Virus record (IMG/VR): IMGVR_UViG_2541047899_000009
Length of the DNA stretch: 47,802 bases
DNA from: a virus
Lineage: Duplodnaviria; Heunggongvirae; Uroviricota; Caudoviricetes
Reading direction: 5' to 3' (one strand)
The notes below the pieces were generated by a model. The model was not told where the DNA came from. It was given only the letters and a program-made list of their open reading frames with translations, and ran no database searches. The position numbers were made by a program, and so were the translations under genes. This document shows, piece after piece, positions 27,832 through 38,498 of the stretch. The stretch's first letter is position 1, and each line of letters begins with the position of its first letter.

Positions 27832-28005
27832 TCAGATTAAATTAATCTTGACATCATAGCTTTCAAGACCCGTCATTTTTTCCCGTGCGGTAAACTGAAT
27901 ACTGGTAACTTCTTTCCCGGTCTTTTTCTTAAGTTCAATAATTTTTTTTGTTATATATTCAGAAATATCTGCTTCTGCTTTTGTTTTTAAGTTTTCAATA
28001 TTCAT
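27832..28005 (-). CDS. gnsB: GnsB-like small protein (Gns family)
   Basis: 57-aa ORF absent from the track (below cutoff): MNIENLKTKAEADISEYITKKIIELKKKTGKEVTSIQFTAREKMTGLESYDVKINLI; AAGAGGA RBS upstream. Confidence 0.65.
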   Translation of the reverse strand: MNIENLKTKAEADISEYITKKIIELKKKTGKEVTSIQFTAREKMTGLESYDVKINLI

Positions 28006-28176
28006 CATTTCCTCTTTTAGTCTGTTATGACTTTCCAGTTACACAGTAAGTCGATTATATGGTGCAAACGTGTAAAAGATAAGATGAAACATCGCAATAA
28101 TCAACATACGATAGTCTAAATTTTACACAAACAGACAAAGAGAATTTTCCTGAATTATCAATACAATAGCATCAAA

Positions 28177-28407
28177 TCAACTCAAGAGCCTTATTGCTGC
28201 TTCCAGAATTTCTTCTGAAGTAACATGTCGATCCGCGGCTACATAAATGACTTTATGATCTCCGGTCAGAGATGGAAACCCTGCGGCCATTACAGTAAGG
28301 TGTGTTTTTTCGCCATTTGGATATTCACGCATGATGGTGTTAACTCCAGTCATCGCTGGCACTACCACTGCTGGTTCAGAGTTAAAAAAAACTATGATTT
28401 TTTTCAT
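28177..28407 (-). CDS. hypothetical small protein
   Basis: About 76 aa from the internal Met (MKKIIVFFNSEPAVVV...); no motif recognised. Confidence 0.4.
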   Translation of the reverse strand: MKKIIVFFNSEPAVVVPAMTGVNTIMREYPNGEKTHLTVMAAGFPSLTGDHKVIYVAADRHVTSEEILEAAIRLLS

Positions 28408-28678
28408 GATGTTACCGTAGTATGTGAGTATCCATCGAATAGATACCAAGCAAAAAAGCTCCCGAAGGAGCCTTCATTTTCACTTTTTTAAATCCAACGA
28501 CAGACGGCTGGCATTTAAGTATTGTGAAATATTATCAAATGTAATCATCATTGATTTACAAAAGATACATTTTGCCCCGAAAGGATTCATGTCAGAAACA
28601 TCAAAAGATGATGTTCTATACTGGGAACCATGACAACACGGGCATCTAAAGTGAATATGGTTTGTAATATTGTCTACC

Positions 28679-28891
28679 TCAAAGCGCCACTACATGAACA
28701 GCGGCAGGACCTTTAGGTCCGTTCTCAATACCAAATTCAACTTCCTGATTCTCAGTTAATGTTTTGAAATCGTTGCTCTGAATTGCTGAGAAATGGACAA
28801 ACACATCTTTGCTGCCATCTTTCGGCGTGATGAAACCAAAACCTTTTTCAGGGTTAAACCATTTCACTAAACCAGTCATTTTGTTAGACAT
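28679..28891 (-). CDS. cspI: cold-shock protein (CspA family)
   Basis: 70 aa; RNP1/RNP2 motifs (KGFGFI, VFVHF); C-terminus ...PAAVHVVAL matches recalled CspI. Confidence 0.85.
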
Positions 28892-29253
28892 AATTATTAC
28901 CTTTTGAAGAAATTAGCCCTTGGGCAGAATGGTCCGAAAAAAAATATCAGAGAGAAAAACCAACAAGGAAATCTCAAGAGGTACAAATAATAAAATTATA
29001 ACAATGACTGCTTCAGATAAATTTGTAACAAACCAGAACACCATTAACGCATGATTAACCACCCATAGCAAGGATTACTTTTGTAAAGAAAAACACAGCA
29101 ATGAAAGAATAGCTTTATTTATTAATAAAACGTGTCATTCTGATTAAGACCTTTTATCTTACCCTTAAGATTTCAGGAATTTTGGCTCATGGAAGAGTCC
29201 TTTTTATTTAAATTTTACATTCCGCGATGTAAATGTTCCGATTTAATATTACC

Positions 29254-30277
<1,024 letters not shown>

Positions 30278-30281
<4 letters not shown>

Positions 30282-30565
30282 ATATATTTATGATGAGGAC
30301 GCTCGTGCTTATTGGCAGGATTTTCAATCTTAAAGGAGTACTGATGCTGCAGATAAGACTCAACTTTTTCTGACAATTTTTCTGCTACTTCCAGGAAGAC
30401 TTGCCGGACGCTCCTTCTGGCTGCTGCCTCATAAAACTCCAGCGCAGCTCCTTCAACACGGTCCATGGCGACATCCAGGTCAAAAATTTCACCGTCAAAG
30501 CGTTCTTTGTCCTGTAAGGCTACAGTTACCGTAACTTTATTCTCAAAATTACGGACTCCTTTCAC
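30278..30565 (-). CDS. ydfR: YdfR-like (DUF1327) protein
   Basis: 95-aa ORF between holin and endolysin, as recalled for Qin ydfR. Confidence 0.55.
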
Positions 30566-30593
30566 AACCAGTTCATAGTCTTGAGTCGTTGGA

Positions 30594-30809
30594 TTACTCT
30601 CCTCTCGCAGCCTTACGCCTGTCTTCTTTAATCTTGAAATAAAGATTTGTCAGATACGTCAGCAGGCCAAAAACCAGGCTACCCAGCACACCGATTGCAG
30701 CCCACTGTGACGGAGTTACTTTATCGAGTAACTGCAATGCCCAGAAACCAGCATTACCCGCCGATGTGCCATAGGCAACACCTGTTGTTAACTTATCCAT
30801 TGATTTCAT
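30594..30809 (-). CDS. essQ: class II holin / pinholin with dual start (S21-like)
   Basis: [71 protein letters not shown]; two TM domains and the M-K-S-M dual-start motif of phage 21 S. Confidence 0.85.
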
Positions 30810-31028
30810 ATCCTCACCCCGATGTACACGGATGGTGCAATATGTTTGAAAAGATCGGAGTCTACGGGGTAGTTTTGACAGCACACGCTGTTCTCAACGG
30901 CGCTAAAGAAACATACACATTAAAAATGTGAGTAATTATTTTGAAAGAAAGTCATATATAAAATAATAATACGAGAAATGTTTTCATATTTAGTGTACTG
31001 TATACGGCCATTTATACAGGAAAAGCCT

Positions 31029-31199
31029 ATGTCAGAACGTAAAGACTCAAAATCACGCCGTAATTATCTCGTTAAATGTTCCTGCCCAAACTGCACCCAA
31101 GAGTCAGAACACAGTTTTTCAAGAGTACAAAAAGGTGCCCTTTTGATCTGCCCTCATTGCAACAAAGTATTCCAGACAAATCTTAAAGCTGTAGCCTGA
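31029..31199 (+). CDS. small zinc-ribbon protein (hypothetical)
   Basis: About 56 aa from the internal Met (MSERKDSKS...); paired cysteines CSCPNC...CPHC. Confidence 0.4.
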   Translation: MSERKDSKSRRNYLVKCSCPNCTQESEHSFSRVQKGALLICPHCNKVFQTNLKAVA

Positions 31200-31252
31200 T
31201 TGATTTTATTAGTAACAAGTATTTTTTATATTTTAATAATATATTTAAAGCA

Positions 31253-31283
31253 GATAATAAAAAACCCGCCTGAGCGGGTTTGA
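31253..31283 (-). terminator. rho-independent terminator of cspB
   Basis: Hairpin aaacccgc-ctga-gcgggttt followed on the minus strand by ttttttatt. Confidence 0.6.
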
Positions 31284-31562
31284 GATTGTGGTGCTTTTTG
31301 TGGGAGTCATCCACTTACGCACTTTGTTTTGCCATGCCAGCAGTTAGCTTCTGCTGTAAAACTATTCATGCAGCAAACCTGCACTTCACCACAATGGTTA
31401 GCATACTTTTCCTGATTAAGATTTTGCCAAATATGCTGGCCATTGTTTCATGTATTGGACCTCCTTAAATTTTATTAAAGAAATCCAATATTCACTACTC
31501 TGTCCGTATCTCTACTCAGGCATCAGCCTTCTTCGTTATCGTATACAGACGAGCGATGAATT

Positions 31563-31778
31563 TTAATCAGTAATGATGACATTTGCTGCTGCAGGACCTT
31601 TAGCACCACTCTCTATAGAGAAGGTAACCTTTTGACCTTCAAATAAGGTTCGATAATTATCATTCTGAATCGCAGAAAAATGCACAAACACATCTTTACT
31701 ACCATCAACAGGAGAAATAAAGCCGAAACCTTTATCAGCGTTAAACCATTTTACTAAACCAGTCATTTTATTTGACAT
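31563..31778 (-). CDS. cspB: cold-shock protein (CspA family)
   Basis: 71 aa: [67 protein letters not shown]...; recalled CspB. Confidence 0.85.
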
Positions 31779-32078
31779 TCTACATTCCTTAACTTGAGCC
31801 TTTCGGCATAAATGGTTTGCATAACAGAAACGACTTCGTACTTAATTGGAGAGACTCAAAGAAGGAATAAGTGAATAACACCTGAAATGAGAACTGCTTT
31901 AGTAAACTACTTCGTATATCGTCTGTTCTTCAAACCGACGCAATCATTAACGCATAGTTGAACATATGAAGCAATGTTTATTTTAGACATCCAGCCATCT
32001 TCAACCCCATCAAAAAACTATAGCTTTCTTCAGGAACGTGTGTATAGTGCGCCAAGTTATCAGTATTAAGGAATTTTT

Positions 32079-32291
32079 TTGTCCCGTAAAATGACAGGAA
32101 TTGTCAAAACCTTTGACGGCAAAAGCGGCAAGGGTCTTATCACCCCATCCGATGGTCGTATCGATGTCCAGCTTCATGTTTCAGCGCTCAATCTCCGCGA
32201 TGCAGAAGAAATTACCACCGGATTACGCGTGGAATTTTGCCGGATAAATGGTCTGCGTGGCCCTTCAGCTGCCAATGTTTACCTTTCATGA
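32079..32291 (+). CDS. cspF: cold-shock-protein-like (CspF/CspH type, divergent RNP motifs)
   Basis: 70 aa: [26 protein letters not shown]...[16 protein letters not shown]; divergently transcribed from cspB. Confidence 0.8.
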
Positions 32292-32587
32292 GCTATATTA
32301 AAGCTTTAATTTCAGGCCCCATCGGATCACACATGGAGAGTTTTTATGAATAACCCCGTCTGTCTTGATGACTGGTTGATTGGCTTTAAAAGCTTATGCT
32401 GTACTTTGGCCGTAATAGCTCTGCTAATAATATAATAAGCAGACTCATTGTGTTTAGGGACATTGTACTGGAAGAAAACATTTTAAACATCAGGCAAATA
32501 ACCAAGTCACCAGCTAAATAATAAGTTAACAGACATGAGTCCCGGGATGAGATTCAACATTACCATTGCCCCATTTAAAGCACAAAA

Positions 32588-32615
32588 CCCGCTCATCAGC
32601 GGGTTTTCTACTTTT
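32588..32615 (+). terminator. hairpin terminator after cspF (possibly bidirectional; candidate tR' on the minus strand)
   Basis: aaacccgctcatcagcgggttt followed by tctactttttc on the plus strand; the same hairpin on the minus strand is followed by tgtgcttt. Confidence 0.55.
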
Positions 32616-32645
32616 TCTTAACGTCGGGTATACAAAGCCCATCAT

Positions 32646-32681
32646 TGAAAAAATTTTATCCATATTTTTTGAAAAATGCAA
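32646..32681 (-). promoter_or_regulatory. candidate sigma70 late promoter (PR'-like) downstream of Q
   Basis: On the minus strand: TTGCAT, 17-nt spacer, TAAAAT, located about 35-65 bp downstream of the Q stop. Confidence 0.4.
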
Positions 32682-32712
32682 ACATCATGTCGCCATCTTC
32701 AGCAAAAATCAT

Positions 32713-33465
32713 TTATCTCGTCACCTTCCTCAATTGCGCTTCCGCGTATGCTTCTTCCTGCCAGCACTTTGTTACCAGTTTACCAATGACGTCCGCATAC
32801 CCCTTATACCACTGATAATCGGTCAGGTCTGGTACCAGCTTCTGGACATGACGTCGTGCCAGCGTGGTCGGTAAACGACTAAACCGGTTTCCATTACAAC
32901 GCCCACAAATCTTATATACCGGTACGCCATGAAACCGGGTTCTTTTTTCATCCAGAACAATCCCTTTACCCTTACACCCTCTGCACGCTGTGCTGACTTC
33001 GCCCTTACCATGGCAATGCTGACATAGTTCCTTCACCCATTCTTCCTTGATTACAGATTCCCCGCGTCTGTAGTGTTTCACCACTTCGCGCAATACATTA
33101 TAAAATCCCGTACCTGAACAATGCTCACAGCGAGCCTTACTTGCCGCAGACCTGGAGTAATCAGCAAAGGCAAAATTCACGAGGTAAGGAATAATCTGTA
33201 ACCGGATTTCTTCACTCAATTTGTTCAATGTCGGGTTATCCAGTGCCATCGCGTAATTTAGCAGGCCTTCAATCGCAAACTGAGCGTCCTGAACACCAAC
33301 TTTTGCCAGAAATAAGGCCAACCCAAGTGGTGCTTTCGACTGCACCATCCCCTGCGCTGCCATTACATCCGTAATTGTTAAACAACCGGTGCCTGTCGCT
33401 GGAGCGTCATCGCTCAATTTTGGAGATTTTGGGGAGTAATATTTTGGTAAGGCTTCAAGGTTCAT
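32713..33465 (-). CDS. quuQ: late-gene antitermination protein Q (phage 21/82 Q family)
   Basis: 250 aa from MNLEALPKYY; zinc-binding cysteine clusters (CEHCSGTG, CQHCHGKG, CRGCKGKG, CGRCNGN). Confidence 0.85.
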   Translation of the reverse strand: MNLEALPKYYSPKSPKLSDDAPATGTGCLTITDVMAAQGMVQSKAPLGLALFLAKVGVQDAQFAIEGLLNYAMALDNPTLNKLSEEIRLQIIPYLVNFAFADYSRSAASKARCEHCSGTGFYNVLREVVKHYRRGESVIKEEWVKELCQHCHGKGEVSTACRGCKGKGIVLDEKRTRFHGVPVYKICGRCNGNRFSRLPTTLARRHVQKLVPDLTDYQWYKGYADVIGKLVTKCWQEEAYAEAQLRKVTR

Positions 33466-33478
33466 GCTCGTTCTCCAC

Positions 33479-34567
33479 TTACGCCAGTACGCCAATTGCC
33501 AGCGCGCGATCGATAAAACGAAATATCAGCTCCAGTTGGGAGCCATACTTCTCTTCAAATGCCACTGTATCCGTATGCAGCTCGTTGTGATGCTTTCTGC
33601 ACAAAGGCAACACAAAGAGATCATGTGCTTTTGTTCCCATTCCGCCCTGCCCGTGACCAATCAGATGATGCGGATCGTCGGCTGGCATACCGCAGCAAGC
33701 ACACGGCTGTGTCTTAACCCAACGTGTGTATTTCTCCTTAACCCAGCGGCGACGTTTAGGCAGCTTCATGAAAGATTCCGGAGACTCTGGATCAACGGTG
33801 ATGCTTACCACCGTCTTTTCCTGTGGTAGTTTTTGTTGCTGGTGGGCGTAAGGCAACGGTGCAAGATTTTTTGTGCGTTGTTTCAATATGCTGGTGGCGG
33901 TCTGCTCTCCCGGTACGATGTCGCTTTCGCGGTACACCGAGCAGATTTTTTCCGCTGGTAATCCCAGCGAACGACGCGATACAGCCTCAGGTAGTGCATC
34001 CACCACCTGATTGCAGACCGCCCACCAAGATAATTCAGCCAAAGATAATTCCCGCTCCTGCGTACCGCTTATTGCGTGACGGATGACGTCAATCACCCAT
34101 GCTGTCAGATTTTGTTGAGCAAGCAGCTCCAGTGATTCCGATGTCTGGTCACGCAGTTGGTTGTCGCAGTGCCAACACAACACCATTGCGCCGGTACCAT
34201 AACGGTGAATGACTGTTTCAGTGTGATGGTAATCGCCATTAGGCCACTGGCAGGATGTAACATGACGTAATAGCCAGTCAGACAATGAGCCAACGCCGCC
34301 AGCAGCACGAATCACCCGTTCGTTACTAAAAAACGGCAGCAATGTTTTGTCTTCCGCCAGCGGCTGGCCAACGGCAGGAACGACTCCGGATGGCAGATTA
34401 CGCATGCTTTTTGGTTCCGGTTCCACCAGCACTCGAGGATTATGAAATATCTGTATGGATTCACGGCCCGGCTTAAGGACCACCAGCCCAAGCTCAGGCA
34501 CCAGAACAGGTCTAAGTAATACCCGCACGTTACCTCCAGATCCGTTGCTGGAAAGTGCGGGACGCAC
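33479..34567 (-). CDS. ydfU: YdfU-like (DUF968) protein with HNH-like zinc finger
   Basis: 362-aa ORF; C-terminal CACCGMPADDPHHL...LCRKHHNELH motif; directly upstream of Q. Confidence 0.7.
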   Translation of the reverse strand: MRPALSSNGSGGNVRVLLRPVLVPELGLVVLKPGRESIQIFHNPRVLVEPEPKSMRNLPSGVVPAVGQPLAEDKTLLPFFSNERVIRAAGGVGSLSDWLLRHVTSCQWPNGDYHHTETVIHRYGTGAMVLCWHCDNQLRDQTSESLELLAQQNLTAWVIDVIRHAISGTQERELSLAELSWWAVCNQVVDALPEAVSRRSLGLPAEKICSVYRESDIVPGEQTATSILKQRTKNLAPLPYAHQQQKLPQEKTVVSITVDPESPESFMKLPKRRRWVKEKYTRWVKTQPCACCGMPADDPHHLIGHGQGGMGTKAHDLFVLPLCRKHHNELHTDTVAFEEKYGSQLELIFRFIDRALAIGVLA

Positions 34568-34808
34568 GTGGTGGGCGTTCGGAGTAAGGCAATCTGACTG
34601 AGATTATCCAGTGACGGTAGTCGAGACTAAGGGCTTTCTTAACCTCGTATCCGCGCCTGCGGTAACACTGAATTATCCATTCAGCCTGCTCTTCAGTGCA
34701 TGGTGGATGCTGGAACCAGTCCGATTTGAATGCATGAAAACGCCGTCCGCACCTGCTGGCAAAGACGGCAGAATCATCAGAATTGTGTAATTTGGTATCG
34801 TGCGCCAT
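34530..34808 (-). CDS. rem: Rem-like small protein
   Basis: Internal Met MAHDTKLHNSDDSAVFASRCGRRFH... within ORF 34530..34919; position between hokD and ydfU as recalled for Qin; start uncertain. Confidence 0.5.
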   Translation of the reverse strand: MAHDTKLHNSDDSAVFASRCGRRFHAFKSDWFQHPPCTEEQAEWIIQCYRRRGYEVKKALSLDYRHWIISVRLPYSERPPRASRTFQQRIWR

Positions 34809-35169
34809 CGGTTGTCTCTGCTGGCGCAGCAGGTGCCAGTTGTTCAGGCTGGCGTATAAAGTATAAATAAACTGGTTCCAGTGTAAAGCCCCTACATTAA
34901 TGGAATAAAAGTCAAACAACAGATTGTTGGGATAAACACAACGCTTATTATTAAAAGCGATTAGATAAATTAAATTTTAATGTTATGCAATTTTACCAGA
35001 TCACCATAACATCTCGTTTGAAACCACCAAAACAACAACCATATCAATATTGATTATGTTAAAGTGAGTAAATATGGAAAACAACAAATCTGCACATTAC
35101 GCTCCTTTTTTATCTGTGATACTTTTTGTTTTATGCTGTGTGTGGGCATTATTTTTATAAAAATATTTA

Positions 35170-35198
35170 CAGATAAAATAAACCCGCCGAAGCGGGTT
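35170..35198 (-). terminator. rho-independent terminator of hokD mRNA
   Basis: Hairpin aacccgc-ttcg-gcgggtt followed on the minus strand by tattttat. Confidence 0.6.
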
Positions 35199-35266
35199 AA
35201 GTGCGGGTGCATTGAGGATGCCTGACACATCAGAGGTGGCGAGGGATTTCTCCCTCGCCTGGTCTC

Positions 35267-35422
35267 TTACTCCTCAGGTTCGTAAGCTGTGAAGACAGCG
35301 ACCTCCGTCTGGCCGGTTCGGATTCGTACCTCGCAGAGGTCTTTCCTCGTTACCAGTGCCGTCACTATGACGGTTAAACAGATGACGATCAGGGCGATTA
35401 ACATCGCCTTTTGCTGCTTCAT
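35267..35422 (-). CDS. hokD: Hok-family type I toxin
   Basis: 51 aa: MKQQKAMLIALIVICLTVIVTALVTRKDLCEVRIRTGQTEVAVFTAYEPEE; single TM helix, canonical Hok. The upstream in-frame extension and leader are consistent with mok/sok elements. Confidence 0.9.
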   Translation of the reverse strand: MKQQKAMLIALIVICLTVIVTALVTRKDLCEVRIRTGQTEVAVFTAYEPEE

Positions 35423-35699
35423 AGCCTGCTTCTCCTTGCCTTTCGGCACGTAAGAGGCTAACCTACATGTGTCTAGCATGAAATTGGCCTCAGATTAATG
35501 TTAAGCGTCTTGCAGGACGCGTAATGTTAACTGGGGCTTTTCTCTATCTGCCTTTGGTGTTCATGCCTGAGACAGATAGCCTCAAGCACCCGCAGCCATT
35601 CTACTTAACTCCCGTCACCTCGCCAATATGAAATCAATCAGAAAGGCGAACCATAAGAGCAATAGCAAGACAATAAGGCCCGCATGGTCGTACAAAGAC

Positions 35700-38498
35700 T
35701 CAGGCACCGTGACATTTTTTGTACTTTATTCCCGAGCCACAGGGGCATTGTTCATTCCGGCCGACCGCACCAAAAACTTCAGTTAATTTAGTCTTTGCTG
35801 CTTTATGGGCAAGCTGTACGATGTAATTTGATTGATTTTGGATTTCTTGACGCTGTACACCTGTGAGGCCTTCGATATAGGGAGCAAGGCGCTGCATTTC
35901 GACATCAGCTGCTTTATGCTGACCCGATAGTGCCAATATGACTGCGTACTGGCTTCGAACCTGAATCAGTCGATGTACTAGACCTGCCTCATTGACAACC
36001 GGCAGGACATGTTGCTCCATGACTTCCTTGGCACCGTCGTAATCCTTTATGGCAACAAACTCATCCGCCAGATCTTGGCCCACCCTGACCATGGATTCCG
36101 GGGCCATGGCCAGATTGTAGAACTTCATCGAATGAATACGCAGTAATGGTGACAGTTTTCCCTGCGCATCACGAATTCTGGCCAGCAACTCCAGAGCATC
36201 AGCCATATGTTTAAAGTGTTCCTGCATATTTTCGGAATGATTAATAGTTTTCCATAATGCGTCGGCGTTTTTTCCTATGACATCAGCAGGTGTGATACCA
36301 AATAAAGAATAGTACCCTTGTATAACATTACAGCTTAATGTTTCAGCATCCTTGAGTTTTTTTAATCTCCAGAGTGCAATGGCATGGTTGTAGTCAAAGA
36401 TGCGTTTATGTTCTTCATCTGGGAGTTGGGGGCGGACTTCCTGTGCCAGCTTTTGAACTTCTCGTGCATCATTGCTTTCTGCCGAAAATAACATTCGTTT
36501 CATTGCATAGGCCATCTCTTCTTGATAGCCGAACTTGTGCTCCGCAAGTAAAGCTCCCATGATGTTTAACCTCTGAGCAATGTGGTCGGATATTCCGTCT
36601 TTAAGCTCAACGAAAACAAGGCCATCCAATGCCCAGAATTTATGAACAGGTCCCAATAAGTCCGATGTTGCAGCACGCTCCAAGCTTGCAAGAATGTCGA
36701 CCGTCACGCCCATCTCATAAAACATTTCTTGGCCTGAGAGTTCGATCAACGTCGTGACATCATTAAGCTTAATATAAAGTTGAGTCAACAACGATAACCG
36801 TTTTGTATTGCGGGTATTATGAAGACTTTCAACTAAAAGGTCTTTCAGCGCTAGTAGCGCTTTGTTCGATATACCCTGATCCATCAGTTCCAGATGTTGC
36901 AGTCCTAGCCCCCTGACAGCATCATGTACCTTCAGGGTCTGGTTTCCATAAATTTCAATAGTGCCAGTAGCGCGCATTTTCCTAATTAAAGAAGCCGCAC
37001 TGCTTGGTGAAATGTTCAGCGAATTGATTAGGAGCGTAGAAATCTCTTCGCGACTCAGCCCTACGTCAGAGAGACTGAACAATGCCAGCGCGCTCTGAAG
37101 TAGTGATTCAAATCCCTGAAATACACGTGACAGAATAATTTCTTGGGCGGTTTCCGCAGTATGGGTTTGTTGCTGGAGTTCAGCACACAGAGCATCGACA
37201 CTACGCTCATAGTCAGAAACGGCGATTTTTGCGGCGCTCTCTACATACAGGGGAAGACCACCAGTGTAAGCCCGTAGCTGCTCGTATCCCATAGCGGTGG
37301 CAAATCCTCCGATATCGTTTACAACGACAGCTACCGTATCGAGATTCCATCCCTGCAGGCCCTCGCGCTGTAGCCCCGTCATGACCTCCAGTTCGCGAAC
37401 GTTTTCGTGAGGCTGGCACAACAGCACAAAACGAATATGTGTAGTTGCATTCAGAACATCCCGTAGATTTTCCGCAGGTACACGATGGGCGTTATCCAGA
37501 ACCAGCACCAAGGTGGTACCCTGCTCTTTCAGGTAGGTATCAAAACTCCTAAGAGCCTCAAAACCACTGGCTCCGGGGAGCAAAATCCTGCGCAAACCGT
37601 CTTGGTCACGGGCTGTAAATCTAGCAGCCATCTCCCGCACCAGCGTACTGGCCAGAGCTGGACCGGGAAGATCACCGGTGTCGTAATAAGCACAAAGTGC
37701 AGTGGAGTGTAATGCGGCCTGTGCGGCCCACGCTGTCTTGCCTGCACCTGAGAGTCCACAAAGGATACGGATCCGCTCACCAGATGTGAGAGAAGGTTCT
37801 TCGTTTTGTGGGCGGTACAGTGCTGGTGGTGCAGGAAAGTCCTGTAGCTGAACGATCAACTGTTCAAATAGTTCAGTAAGTTCCTCCGTGAAAAACGTAT
37901 GTTGTCCATTGGTATCGCCTCCGGTGGCGGCAAGCTGAACCAACCCTGCTAACTTCCAAATCAAGGATTCTGGGGACAATAGTGAAAATTTCAGCTTTTC
38001 TGCTTCTGCGATACACCATGTGGCCGCATCAGCCAGAGTACTCCATGCGGGCGGAAGTGCCGGGTGACGTCCAGCTGTCGACCGGGGCCAGACAATAAGA
38101 ACATCAGAAGGAAGCTTTTTATCGTCAATCATCTTCTGAAGCAGCGGTCCAGGCGCCTGGTTTACAATAATCACAAAAGAAGCCACCCCTTCGCGGTTTG
38201 CCGAAGTATGCTCATTTCTGAGCTTTACAAATCGCTCCAGAGCCCCCGACACATCGTTGGGCATAATAGGCTTTGAACGGGTTTTAACCTGAATGTAGAG
38301 ACGTTCCTGTTTGGATTTCAGCTCAATATCCTCATCAAGCTCGACAGTTACTGAGTCCATAGCAGCCCTCTGCGCCAAAAGTAAGCAGCCTACAGCGTAA
38401 AGATGCTGGTAAAGGAACCCCCGGTGTACCGCTTCGATACGCACCAACTGCACAGGATCCAGTACGTCCAGATGTTGTTTGTTTTCACTTCCCCACAT
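35700..38498 (-). CDS. STAND-like P-loop NTPase with N-terminal nuclease-like domain, helical repeat region and C-terminal SEC-C zinc motif; candidate Avs/NLR-like antiphage defence protein
   Basis: 932 aa. Walker A GLSGAGKT (about aa 248-255), Walker B LVLVLD (about aa 330-335), possible PD-(D/E)xK-like residues in the N-terminal 80 aa (VELDEDIELK...YIQVK), about 550 aa of predicted helical repeats, terminal CPCGSGIKYKKCHG. Single large gene flanked by AT-rich spacers immediately upstream of hokD. Confidence 0.6.
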   Translation of the reverse strand: MWGSENKQHLDVLDPVQLVRIEAVHRGFLYQHLYAVGCLLLAQRAAMDSVTVELDEDIELKSKQERLYIQVKTRSKPIMPNDVSGALERFVKLRNEHTSANREGVASFVIIVNQAPGPLLQKMIDDKKLPSDVLIVWPRSTAGRHPALPPAWSTLADAATWCIAEAEKLKFSLLSPESLIWKLAGLVQLAATGGDTNGQHTFFTEELTELFEQLIVQLQDFPAPPALYRPQNEEPSLTSGERIRILCGLSGAGKTAWAAQAALHSTALCAYYDTGDLPGPALASTLVREMAARFTARDQDGLRRILLPGASGFEALRSFDTYLKEQGTTLVLVLDNAHRVPAENLRDVLNATTHIRFVLLCQPHENVRELEVMTGLQREGLQGWNLDTVAVVVNDIGGFATAMGYEQLRAYTGGLPLYVESAAKIAVSDYERSVDALCAELQQQTHTAETAQEIILSRVFQGFESLLQSALALFSLSDVGLSREEISTLLINSLNISPSSAASLIRKMRATGTIEIYGNQTLKVHDAVRGLGLQHLELMDQGISNKALLALKDLLVESLHNTRNTKRLSLLTQLYIKLNDVTTLIELSGQEMFYEMGVTVDILASLERAATSDLLGPVHKFWALDGLVFVELKDGISDHIAQRLNIMGALLAEHKFGYQEEMAYAMKRMLFSAESNDAREVQKLAQEVRPQLPDEEHKRIFDYNHAIALWRLKKLKDAETLSCNVIQGYYSLFGITPADVIGKNADALWKTINHSENMQEHFKHMADALELLARIRDAQGKLSPLLRIHSMKFYNLAMAPESMVRVGQDLADEFVAIKDYDGAKEVMEQHVLPVVNEAGLVHRLIQVRSQYAVILALSGQHKAADVEMQRLAPYIEGLTGVQRQEIQNQSNYIVQLAHKAAKTKLTEVFGAVGRNEQCPCGSGIKYKKCHGA

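Follow-up and report, generated by a model that had tools for sequence, protein, structure and literature searches.

A late promoter, pause element and terminator downstream of Q in a Qin-type lambdoid prophage, a probable counterpart of lambda PR'-qut-tR'

The window, that is, the whole stretch of 47,802 nucleotides in IMG/VR record IMGVR_UViG_2541047899_000009, is a Qin-type lambdoid prophage with its insertion site between ydfJ and rspB. The 421-nt intergenic segment between cspF and Q matches E. coli AR_0077 at 100% identity and K-12 at 99.8%, and is found in 1,629 of 5,426 complete E. coli genomes. In AR_0077, whose corresponding region is near-identical, RefSeq annotates on the minus strand, in order, dicC, early genes, hokD, rem, ydfU and Q (ydfT/quuQ), and further along the late genes, holin, ydfR, endolysin, spanin, cspI, terminase, portal, capsid and tail; between Q and the holin lie cspF with a small ORF (plus strand), cspB, and ynfU (plus strand). 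The head and tail genes are annotated in this region of AR_0077, unlike in K-12. Holin, endolysin and spanin all lie on the minus strand of the window, at 30809 and below, and the essQ-type holin, the first lysis gene of the late operon, is 1.8 kb downstream of the promoter described here (PR'); the terminase, portal, capsid and tail genes, from the AR_0077 annotation, are likewise on the minus strand, downstream of the terminator (tR'). The small ORF between cspF and the tR' hairpin is ynfS, a gene of 29 amino acids whose translation in K-12 has been validated (VanOrsdel 2018).

Several other features occur around this region. A palindrome, TCTGCT...AGCAGA, spans the ynfS stop codon. Leaders of the cspA thermoregulator type precede cspB (31547-31939, minus strand) and cspI (28652-29037, minus strand) according to Rfam, so that the csp cargo in the late operon comes with cold-shock-type leaders of its own, and a sok antitoxin RNA (35417-35591, minus strand; Rfam) adjoins hokD. 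Between cspB and ynfU there is a strong hairpin, AAACCCGCTCAGGCGGGTTT, symmetric on both strands (31262-31281), which is plausibly a bidirectional terminator for the convergent cspB and ynfU that a Q-modified polymerase would have to cross. Very strong minus-strand Term-seq 3' ends in K-12 correspond to window positions 31448 and 31450, where there is no hairpin, and may be processing sites. Also adjoining hokD, in the slot held by relBE/ydfV/flxA in K-12 and by a different gene with an FRG domain in AR_0077, is a 932-aa ORF (35700-38498, minus strand) with an N-terminal Cap4-like/LmuA-like nuclease, matches to AAA_22/AAA_16 ATPases and, at its C-terminus, a SEC-C motif; it is a candidate for an anti-phage defence gene of the STAND type.

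The Q protein is a member of the Q-lambda family: it matches Pfam PF03589 (E = 3e-54), with an additional DnaJ_CXXCXGXG match, aligns with lambda Q over its full length (BLASTP, 33% identity, E = 3e-40), with N- and C-terminal segments conserved between the two, and matches PDB 7UBM (E = 7e-36); PF03589 is assigned to the Q-lambda family (PMC9388147). Relative to lambda Q, it carries a 48-aa insertion in the zinc-ribbon 'arm', which thereby has twice as many CXXC motifs, four in all and of the DnaJ type (CXXCXGXG), and is probably a two-zinc arm. As the arm of lambda Q contacts positions 11-13 of the Q-binding element as well as sigma region 4 (PMC9388147), the loading geometry of the Q protein encoded in the window may differ.

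The Q stop codon occupies 32715-32713 on the minus strand, and 31 nt further on begins the -35 hexamer of a TTGCAT-17-TAAAAT promoter motif (32681-32653), placed as originally predicted (Table 1). Its description as near-consensus is overstated: the -10 hexamer matches TATAAT at 5/6 positions, and the -35 hexamer matches TTGACA at only 3/6. The hexamers by themselves are no better than chance: promoter-like sites were not in excess over shuffled sequences (10 found against 7.5 +/- 3.1 expected), a second promoter scan was likewise without excess (18 found against 23 +/- 4.9), and the hexamer pattern with one mismatch allowed was matched in 33 of 100 shuffles. It is because of homology, conservation and published transcript mapping, not because of the hexamers, that the element can be taken as real. 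An antisense 102-aa ORF over the promoter (32566-32874, plus strand) was rejected as a gene, being truncated in SfV and one other sequence, with an unconserved N-terminus.

Table 1. Features of the Q-proximal late region on window coordinates, with mean pairwise identity of segments in a nine-sequence alignment; Q third-codon positions serve as the neutral reference.
Feature	Position	Strand	Mean pairwise identity	Remarks
Q antiterminator gene (quuQ/ydfT type, 250 aa)	32713..33465	-		Pfam PF03589; RefSeq 'antitermination protein'
Q third-codon positions (neutral reference)			0.88	
PR' -35 hexamer TTGCAT	32676..32681	-	1.00	aligns with lambda TTGACT; invariant in 9 diverged relatives
17-nt spacer TTTTCAAAAAATATGGA, putative Q-binding element (by position)	32659..32675	-	0.95	between -35 and -10
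PR' -10 hexamer TAAAAT	32653..32658	-	0.93	TAAGAT in most phage relatives
-10 to +1 segment			0.77	least conserved part of promoter
Transcription start, +1 A	32646	-		ungapped lambda pR' alignment; dRNA-seq start quoted in Sun 2021
sigma70-dependent pause element, AATGAT then GGG (AATGATGGG)	32638..32646	-	0.975 (+1 to +9)	lambda, K-12, most relatives: AACGATGGG
Promoter-proximal pause positions	32629..32633	-		K-12 RNA 3' ends 13, 16 and 17 nt downstream of start
+27 to hairpin (+27 to +39)			0.65	least conserved part of transcript
tR' hairpin AAAACCCGCT-GATG-AGCGGGTTTT	32584..32607	-		10 bp, GATG loop, +40 to +63
Tail GTGCTTTA after hairpin	32576..32583	-		mapped RNA 3' end = C32580 (+67)
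After T-tract			0.39	vs 0.80-1.00 within module
Convergent cargo genes cspF (32079-32291) and ynfS (32346-32435)	32079..32435	+		crossed antisense by late transcript
Holin gene (essQ type)	30594..30809	-		Pfam Phage_holin_2_1; RefSeq annotation

Homology to lambda pR' extends across the promoter and into the transcript. When the two are anchored on their -35 hexamers, an ungapped alignment gives 31 identities in 44 positions from -35 to +9, with a spacer (17 nt) and a gap between the -10 hexamer and +1 (6 nt) of the same length in both, and with a window spacer partly similar in sequence to that of lambda, where the Q-binding element lies between the -35 and -10 hexamers. The motif AAYGATGGG sits at +1 to +9 in both the window and lambda, where the -10-like sequence at +1 is the sigma70-dependent pause element of qut. 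Lambda also has a TTGACT just upstream of its pause element, at which sigma region 4 is repositioned; this TTGACT-like element is without counterpart in the window (TTTTTT/TTTTTC), which has TTTTTC on the minus strand between the -10 hexamer and the pause element. The RNA 5' end (32620-32646, minus strand) can form a stem, AACG...CGUU, enclosing the pause-element RNA, and lambda has a counterpart, AACGA...UCGUU. A conserved 5' stem-loop was nonetheless rejected as a candidate, the pairing being kept across 17 variants only by one-sided (G-U) changes, with weak folding z-scores of -0.75 to -2.4, and +0.6 in one relative.

The sole difference between the window and K-12 in the 421-nt cspF-Q intergenic region, position 32644, falls inside the pause element at +3 of the transcript, and is T in the window (AATGAT) and C in K-12 and lambda (AACGAT). 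The C-to-T change lifts the match of the pause element to TATAAT from 3/6 to 4/6 and creates an AUG at +2. The T allele is rare, being found in 2 of 78 IMG/VR loci and in the 27 of 1,391 E. coli records that match a 61-nt query at >=99% identity (a single mismatch gives 98.4%). Pauses 16-20 nt from the start are classed as dependent on a downstream -10-like region, and strengthening that region strengthens the pause (Sun 2021); since the T allele is closer to TATAAT, the pause in the window would be expected to be kept or increased.

The start at window position 32646, equivalent to 1642422 in NC_000913.3, was predicted from the lambda alignment before the transcript tables were seen. Between NC_000913.2 and NC_000913.3 we take the offset to be 1,976 (IS1 776 + 1 + IS5 1,199), which places a start at 1640446 of the older version on window position 32646; the same conversion logic applied to the DLP12 prophage puts a TATGCT -10 hexamer exactly 6 nt upstream of the start 576452, which supports the conversion. 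A dRNA-seq start at 1640446 (minus strand, NC_000913.2) is indeed quoted in Sun 2021 from Thomason 2015, and is the nearest to RNET-seq pauses at 1640429 and 1640430 (minus strand, NC_000913.2; Supplementary Data 1 of that study), 17 and 16 nt away, which rank 12th and 24th by score in the sheet for sigma70 pull-down from greAB-deleted cells, also in NC_000913.2 coordinates; a further pause, at 1640433, is given in Supplementary Data 2. Downstream, Term-seq places a 3' end at NC_000913.3 1642356 (minus strand; class 'orphan'), appearing three times in a file that covers three growth conditions (Adams 2021, Supplementary file 1). The 61-nt sequence printed there is that of the window minus strand from 32630 to 32570, and the RNA 3' end therefore corresponds to C32580, eight nt past the G+C part of the stem. 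This 3' end could in part come from read-through of the Q mRNA rather than from PR'. One extra minus-strand 3' end in K-12 maps to a position equal to window 32412, which indicates some transcription past tR' without induction. All these transcript-mapping data are from K-12, with C rather than T at +3, and not from the window's own strain.

Two outcomes had been named as counting against the original prediction, the lack of a transcript start at this position and a late promoter mapping directly upstream of the holin; the K-12 dRNA-seq start falls at the predicted +1, and homology to DLP12 reveals no lambdoid PR' copy in the latter position. A second, holin-proximal late promoter was accordingly rejected, the PR' region of DLP12 having no homologue upstream of essQ and only the holin gene itself aligning. 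The supplementary start-site tables of Cappable-seq and SMRT-Cappable-seq have no entry for the PR' locus, the literature found on quuQ, ydfT, and cspF with Hfq contains no description of the PR' promoter or of a 67-nt RNA, and we found no paper describing the site as the Qin late promoter.

The same module accompanies Q in many phages. In BLAST searches against phage genomes, many matches start from position 293 of the query (window 32584, the base of the hairpin) and run into Q; they include SfV, mEp460, Ayreon, vB_EcoM-689R6, vB_EcoM-720R4 and Stx2c phages, as well as the Salmonella phages 118970_sal3 and SKA5. In SfV, mEp460, Ayreon, Tritos and Salmonella phages the homology spans Q, the promoter and the hairpin T-tract, and then ends. 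The -35 hexamer, the spacer, the -10 hexamer and positions +1 to +9 are all more conserved than the third-codon positions of Q (Table 1). Of the 80 IMG/VR loci whose Q is at least 95% identical, 78 have the full motif, as is the count for the -35 hexamer (78/80), and the cargo downstream of the module in IMG/VR loci belongs to several unrelated families. SfV, mEp460, Ayreon, Tritos and 2H10 share the Q subfamily (Q 90-97% identical to that of the window), with an identical -35 hexamer, a nearly identical spacer and pause element, and an equivalent hairpin, which the SfV and Ayreon records annotate as a rho-independent terminator; those records have no annotation of a promoter or qut site. Most of these phages differ from the window in having TAAGAT at -10, AACGAT at +1 and 6-7 T in a longer T-tract. 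After the hairpin, a DNA methylase and small ORFs take the place of the csp genes. In the Stx2c phages, the 2.5 kb downstream of the Q module contain a lipoprotein-like ORF and a methylase, not stx.

The strong hairpin that had been proposed about 40 nt beyond the promoter begins at +40 counted from the predicted start, with 45 nt between it and the -10 hexamer, and is followed on the minus strand by GTGCTTTAAAT. Together, the start at 32646 and the 3' end at 32580 mapped in K-12 define a 67-nt RNA, which folds at -24.4 kcal/mol (z = -4.8; none of 200 shuffles folds as well). Across 17 variants, 93% of cells retain the pairing of the hairpin, with three pairs changing on both sides, i.e., in a compensatory manner, in the Salmonella lineage. 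A search of 28000-36000 against Rfam at E <= 1 gave no match overlapping 32560-32712, and a coding role for the 67-nt RNA was rejected, since sequences diverge completely after the hairpin and no ORF is therefore conserved. In K-12 the promoter fires in uninduced cells, with termination at +67.

The hairpin might instead act mainly as a bidirectional terminator that ends the convergent plus-strand transcript of cspF and ynfS, the minus-strand promoter being incidental. Read on the plus strand, the stem runs into TTTTCTACTTTTTC and also folds well (-15.1 kcal/mol, z = -5.6; none of 200 shuffles as well), both strands have four U immediately behind the stem, the hairpin being nearly symmetric, and in Qin-type variants the Q strand has an A-rich run ahead of the stem, which provides a plus-strand U-tract that relatives of the SfV type are without. 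Against this, the hairpin lies 292 nt past the cspF stop and 148 nt past the ynfS stop, with ynfS in between, and Term-seq in three conditions gives no plus-strand 3' end in K-12 1641800-1642499, 700 nt spanning cspF, ynfS and the hairpin; of the two strands of the hairpin, only the minus strand has a listed 3' end, a weak test inasmuch as plus-strand expression may be low. Moreover, the hairpin is conserved together with Q in phages lacking cspF or ynfS (SfV, Ayreon, mEp460), and the minus-strand promoter is demonstrably active in K-12, which makes plus-strand termination at most an added function. We therefore regard this explanation of the locus as unlikely. The part of the original prediction that made the hairpin the cspF terminator is unsupported; use in both directions is possible from its symmetry, in which case the adjacent plus-strand gene would be ynfS, not cspF.

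Promoter and terminator could also form a free-standing sRNA gene, the 67-nt RNA acting in trans, like StxS of Shiga-toxin phages, as the function under selection in the lysogen. Uninduced K-12 makes the RNA under three growth conditions, from a promoter with very high polymerase occupancy, and there is a precedent in StxS, an Hfq-binding regulator of rpoS and stx1 that originates from a PR'-tR' interval (PMC7547250). An A-rich (ARN-like) stretch, AAGAAAAAGUAGAAAA, precedes the terminator hairpin, and the two could serve as a chaperone-binding platform. The RNA nevertheless matches no Rfam family, its least conserved part is +27 to +39 (0.65), which argues against a conserved seed, and a literature search found no Hfq-binding or target data for it; nor does an sRNA compete with a role in antitermination, which explains all the conserved parts. 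A free-standing sRNA gene is an improbable account of the locus, and it is likewise improbable that the constitutive PR'-tR' RNA, from a Qin-type prophage carried by about a quarter of complete E. coli genomes, with K-12 among them, would be a functional trans-acting sRNA analogous to StxS and not only a by-product. Finally, that the hairpin is a plain terminator of the early/middle operon containing Q, with the promoter-like hexamers a chance match, is hardly credible despite a hexamer pattern not rarer than chance and a hairpin placed, at 106 nt from the Q stop, where an operon terminator would normally be, because the chance match is contradicted by the K-12 dRNA-seq start and top-ranked sigma70-dependent pause mapping to PR', while the spacer and AAYGATGGG, besides matching lambda pR', are more conserved than synonymous sites.

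A Q-dependent cassette consists of a Q gene, PR', a sigma-dependent pause element, a terminator and late genes (PMC9388147), and its parts occur in the same order in the window: a Q of the Q-lambda family, a sigma70 PR' just downstream that is active in K-12, a sigma-dependent pause element with its pause, tR' before the late genes, and lysis and morphogenesis genes on the same strand. The motifs, the homology to lambda pR' and the gene order in the window, the conservation of the module with Q, and the start, sigma70-dependent pause and 3' end in K-12 strongly suggest that this Qin-type lambdoid prophage has its late-gene regulatory cassette at 32576-32681 (minus strand), homologous to lambda PR'-qut-tR' (with a probability of roughly 0.86), and the PR'-like late promoter, qut layout and tR'-like terminator originally predicted after Q are well supported.

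In the mechanism that we propose, sigma70 RNA polymerase would start constitutively at A32646, and sigma70 region 2 would re-bind AATGAT (+1 to +6) on the non-template strand and cause a pause about 16-17 nt downstream. Without Q, the polymerase would escape, terminate at the hairpin (+40 to +63) and release the 67-nt RNA ending at C32580. Upon prophage induction, Q would be made, would presumably bind its putative site in the promoter spacer and load on the paused complex, and the polymerase would become terminator-resistant. The modified polymerase would then read through tR', cspF and ynfS (both antisense), cspB and its terminator, and ynfU (antisense), into holin, endolysin and spanin and then the head and tail genes, passing further minus-strand terminator-like hairpins at 31281-31262, 27805-27784, 19891-19878 and 17462-17445. 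The gene order agrees with the earlier proposal that late transcription must cross the csp genes: on the way from PR' to the holin start at 30809 lie cspF (crossed antisense) and cspB (sense), along with ynfS and ynfU (both antisense). Both Q binding to the spacer and Q-dependent read-through of tR' are predictions from sequence.

The likeness to lambda PR'-qut-tR' includes a Q gene directly upstream on the same strand, an intrinsic terminator followed by lysis and morphogenesis genes, and a promoter-proximal pause, 16-17 nt from the start in K-12 Qin and at +16/+17 in lambda. In contrast, the window terminator at +40 to +67 yields a 67-nt RNA and not the longer 6S RNA of lambda (about 194 nt), the spacer, presumed to be the Q-binding element, differs in sequence, and 1.8 kb of cargo, with three genes on the opposite strand, separates tR' from the holin. 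The Shiga-toxin phages provide another parallel in StxS, a short constitutive RNA made in the lysogen from an antiterminated late promoter (74 nt, compared with 67 nt; PMC7547250), the likeness of the Qin RNA to it being one of origin and size.

The late promoter upstream of essD in the K-12 prophage DLP12 likewise combines a top-ranked sigma70-dependent pause with a hairpin terminator and then a holin. It is not homologous to the Qin element, pauses closer to the start (11-15 nt), and lies directly upstream of the holin, without cargo between. This promoter, at about 577214-577289 of NC_000913.3, has a TATGCT -10 hexamer, a start at 577229 and the hairpin AAACCCGCCGTCGAGCGGGTTTTT, and its pause scores rank 2nd and 4th among the sigma70-dependent ones tabulated in Sun 2021; the element looks like the PR'-tR' of DLP12.

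The type of element described here is a textbook one, and its terminator is already annotated in phage records; the textbook picture is unchanged, and the differences from lambda make it a variant, not a new kind of system. With the cassette, the switch for the late genes in the widespread Qin family of prophages has a precise, annotated location. The cassette also explains two K-12 observations, a Term-seq 3' end classed as 'orphan' and a sigma70-dependent pause score among the highest in that genome, neither of which was linked to a prophage Q cassette in Adams 2021 or Sun 2021, the latter making no mention of prophages. It can be compared mechanistically with lambda as a naturally occurring variant of that system, with a shorter leader, no site for sigma region 4 and a Q with an enlarged zinc arm, and it places cargo genes, some of them antisense, inside an antiterminated late operon.
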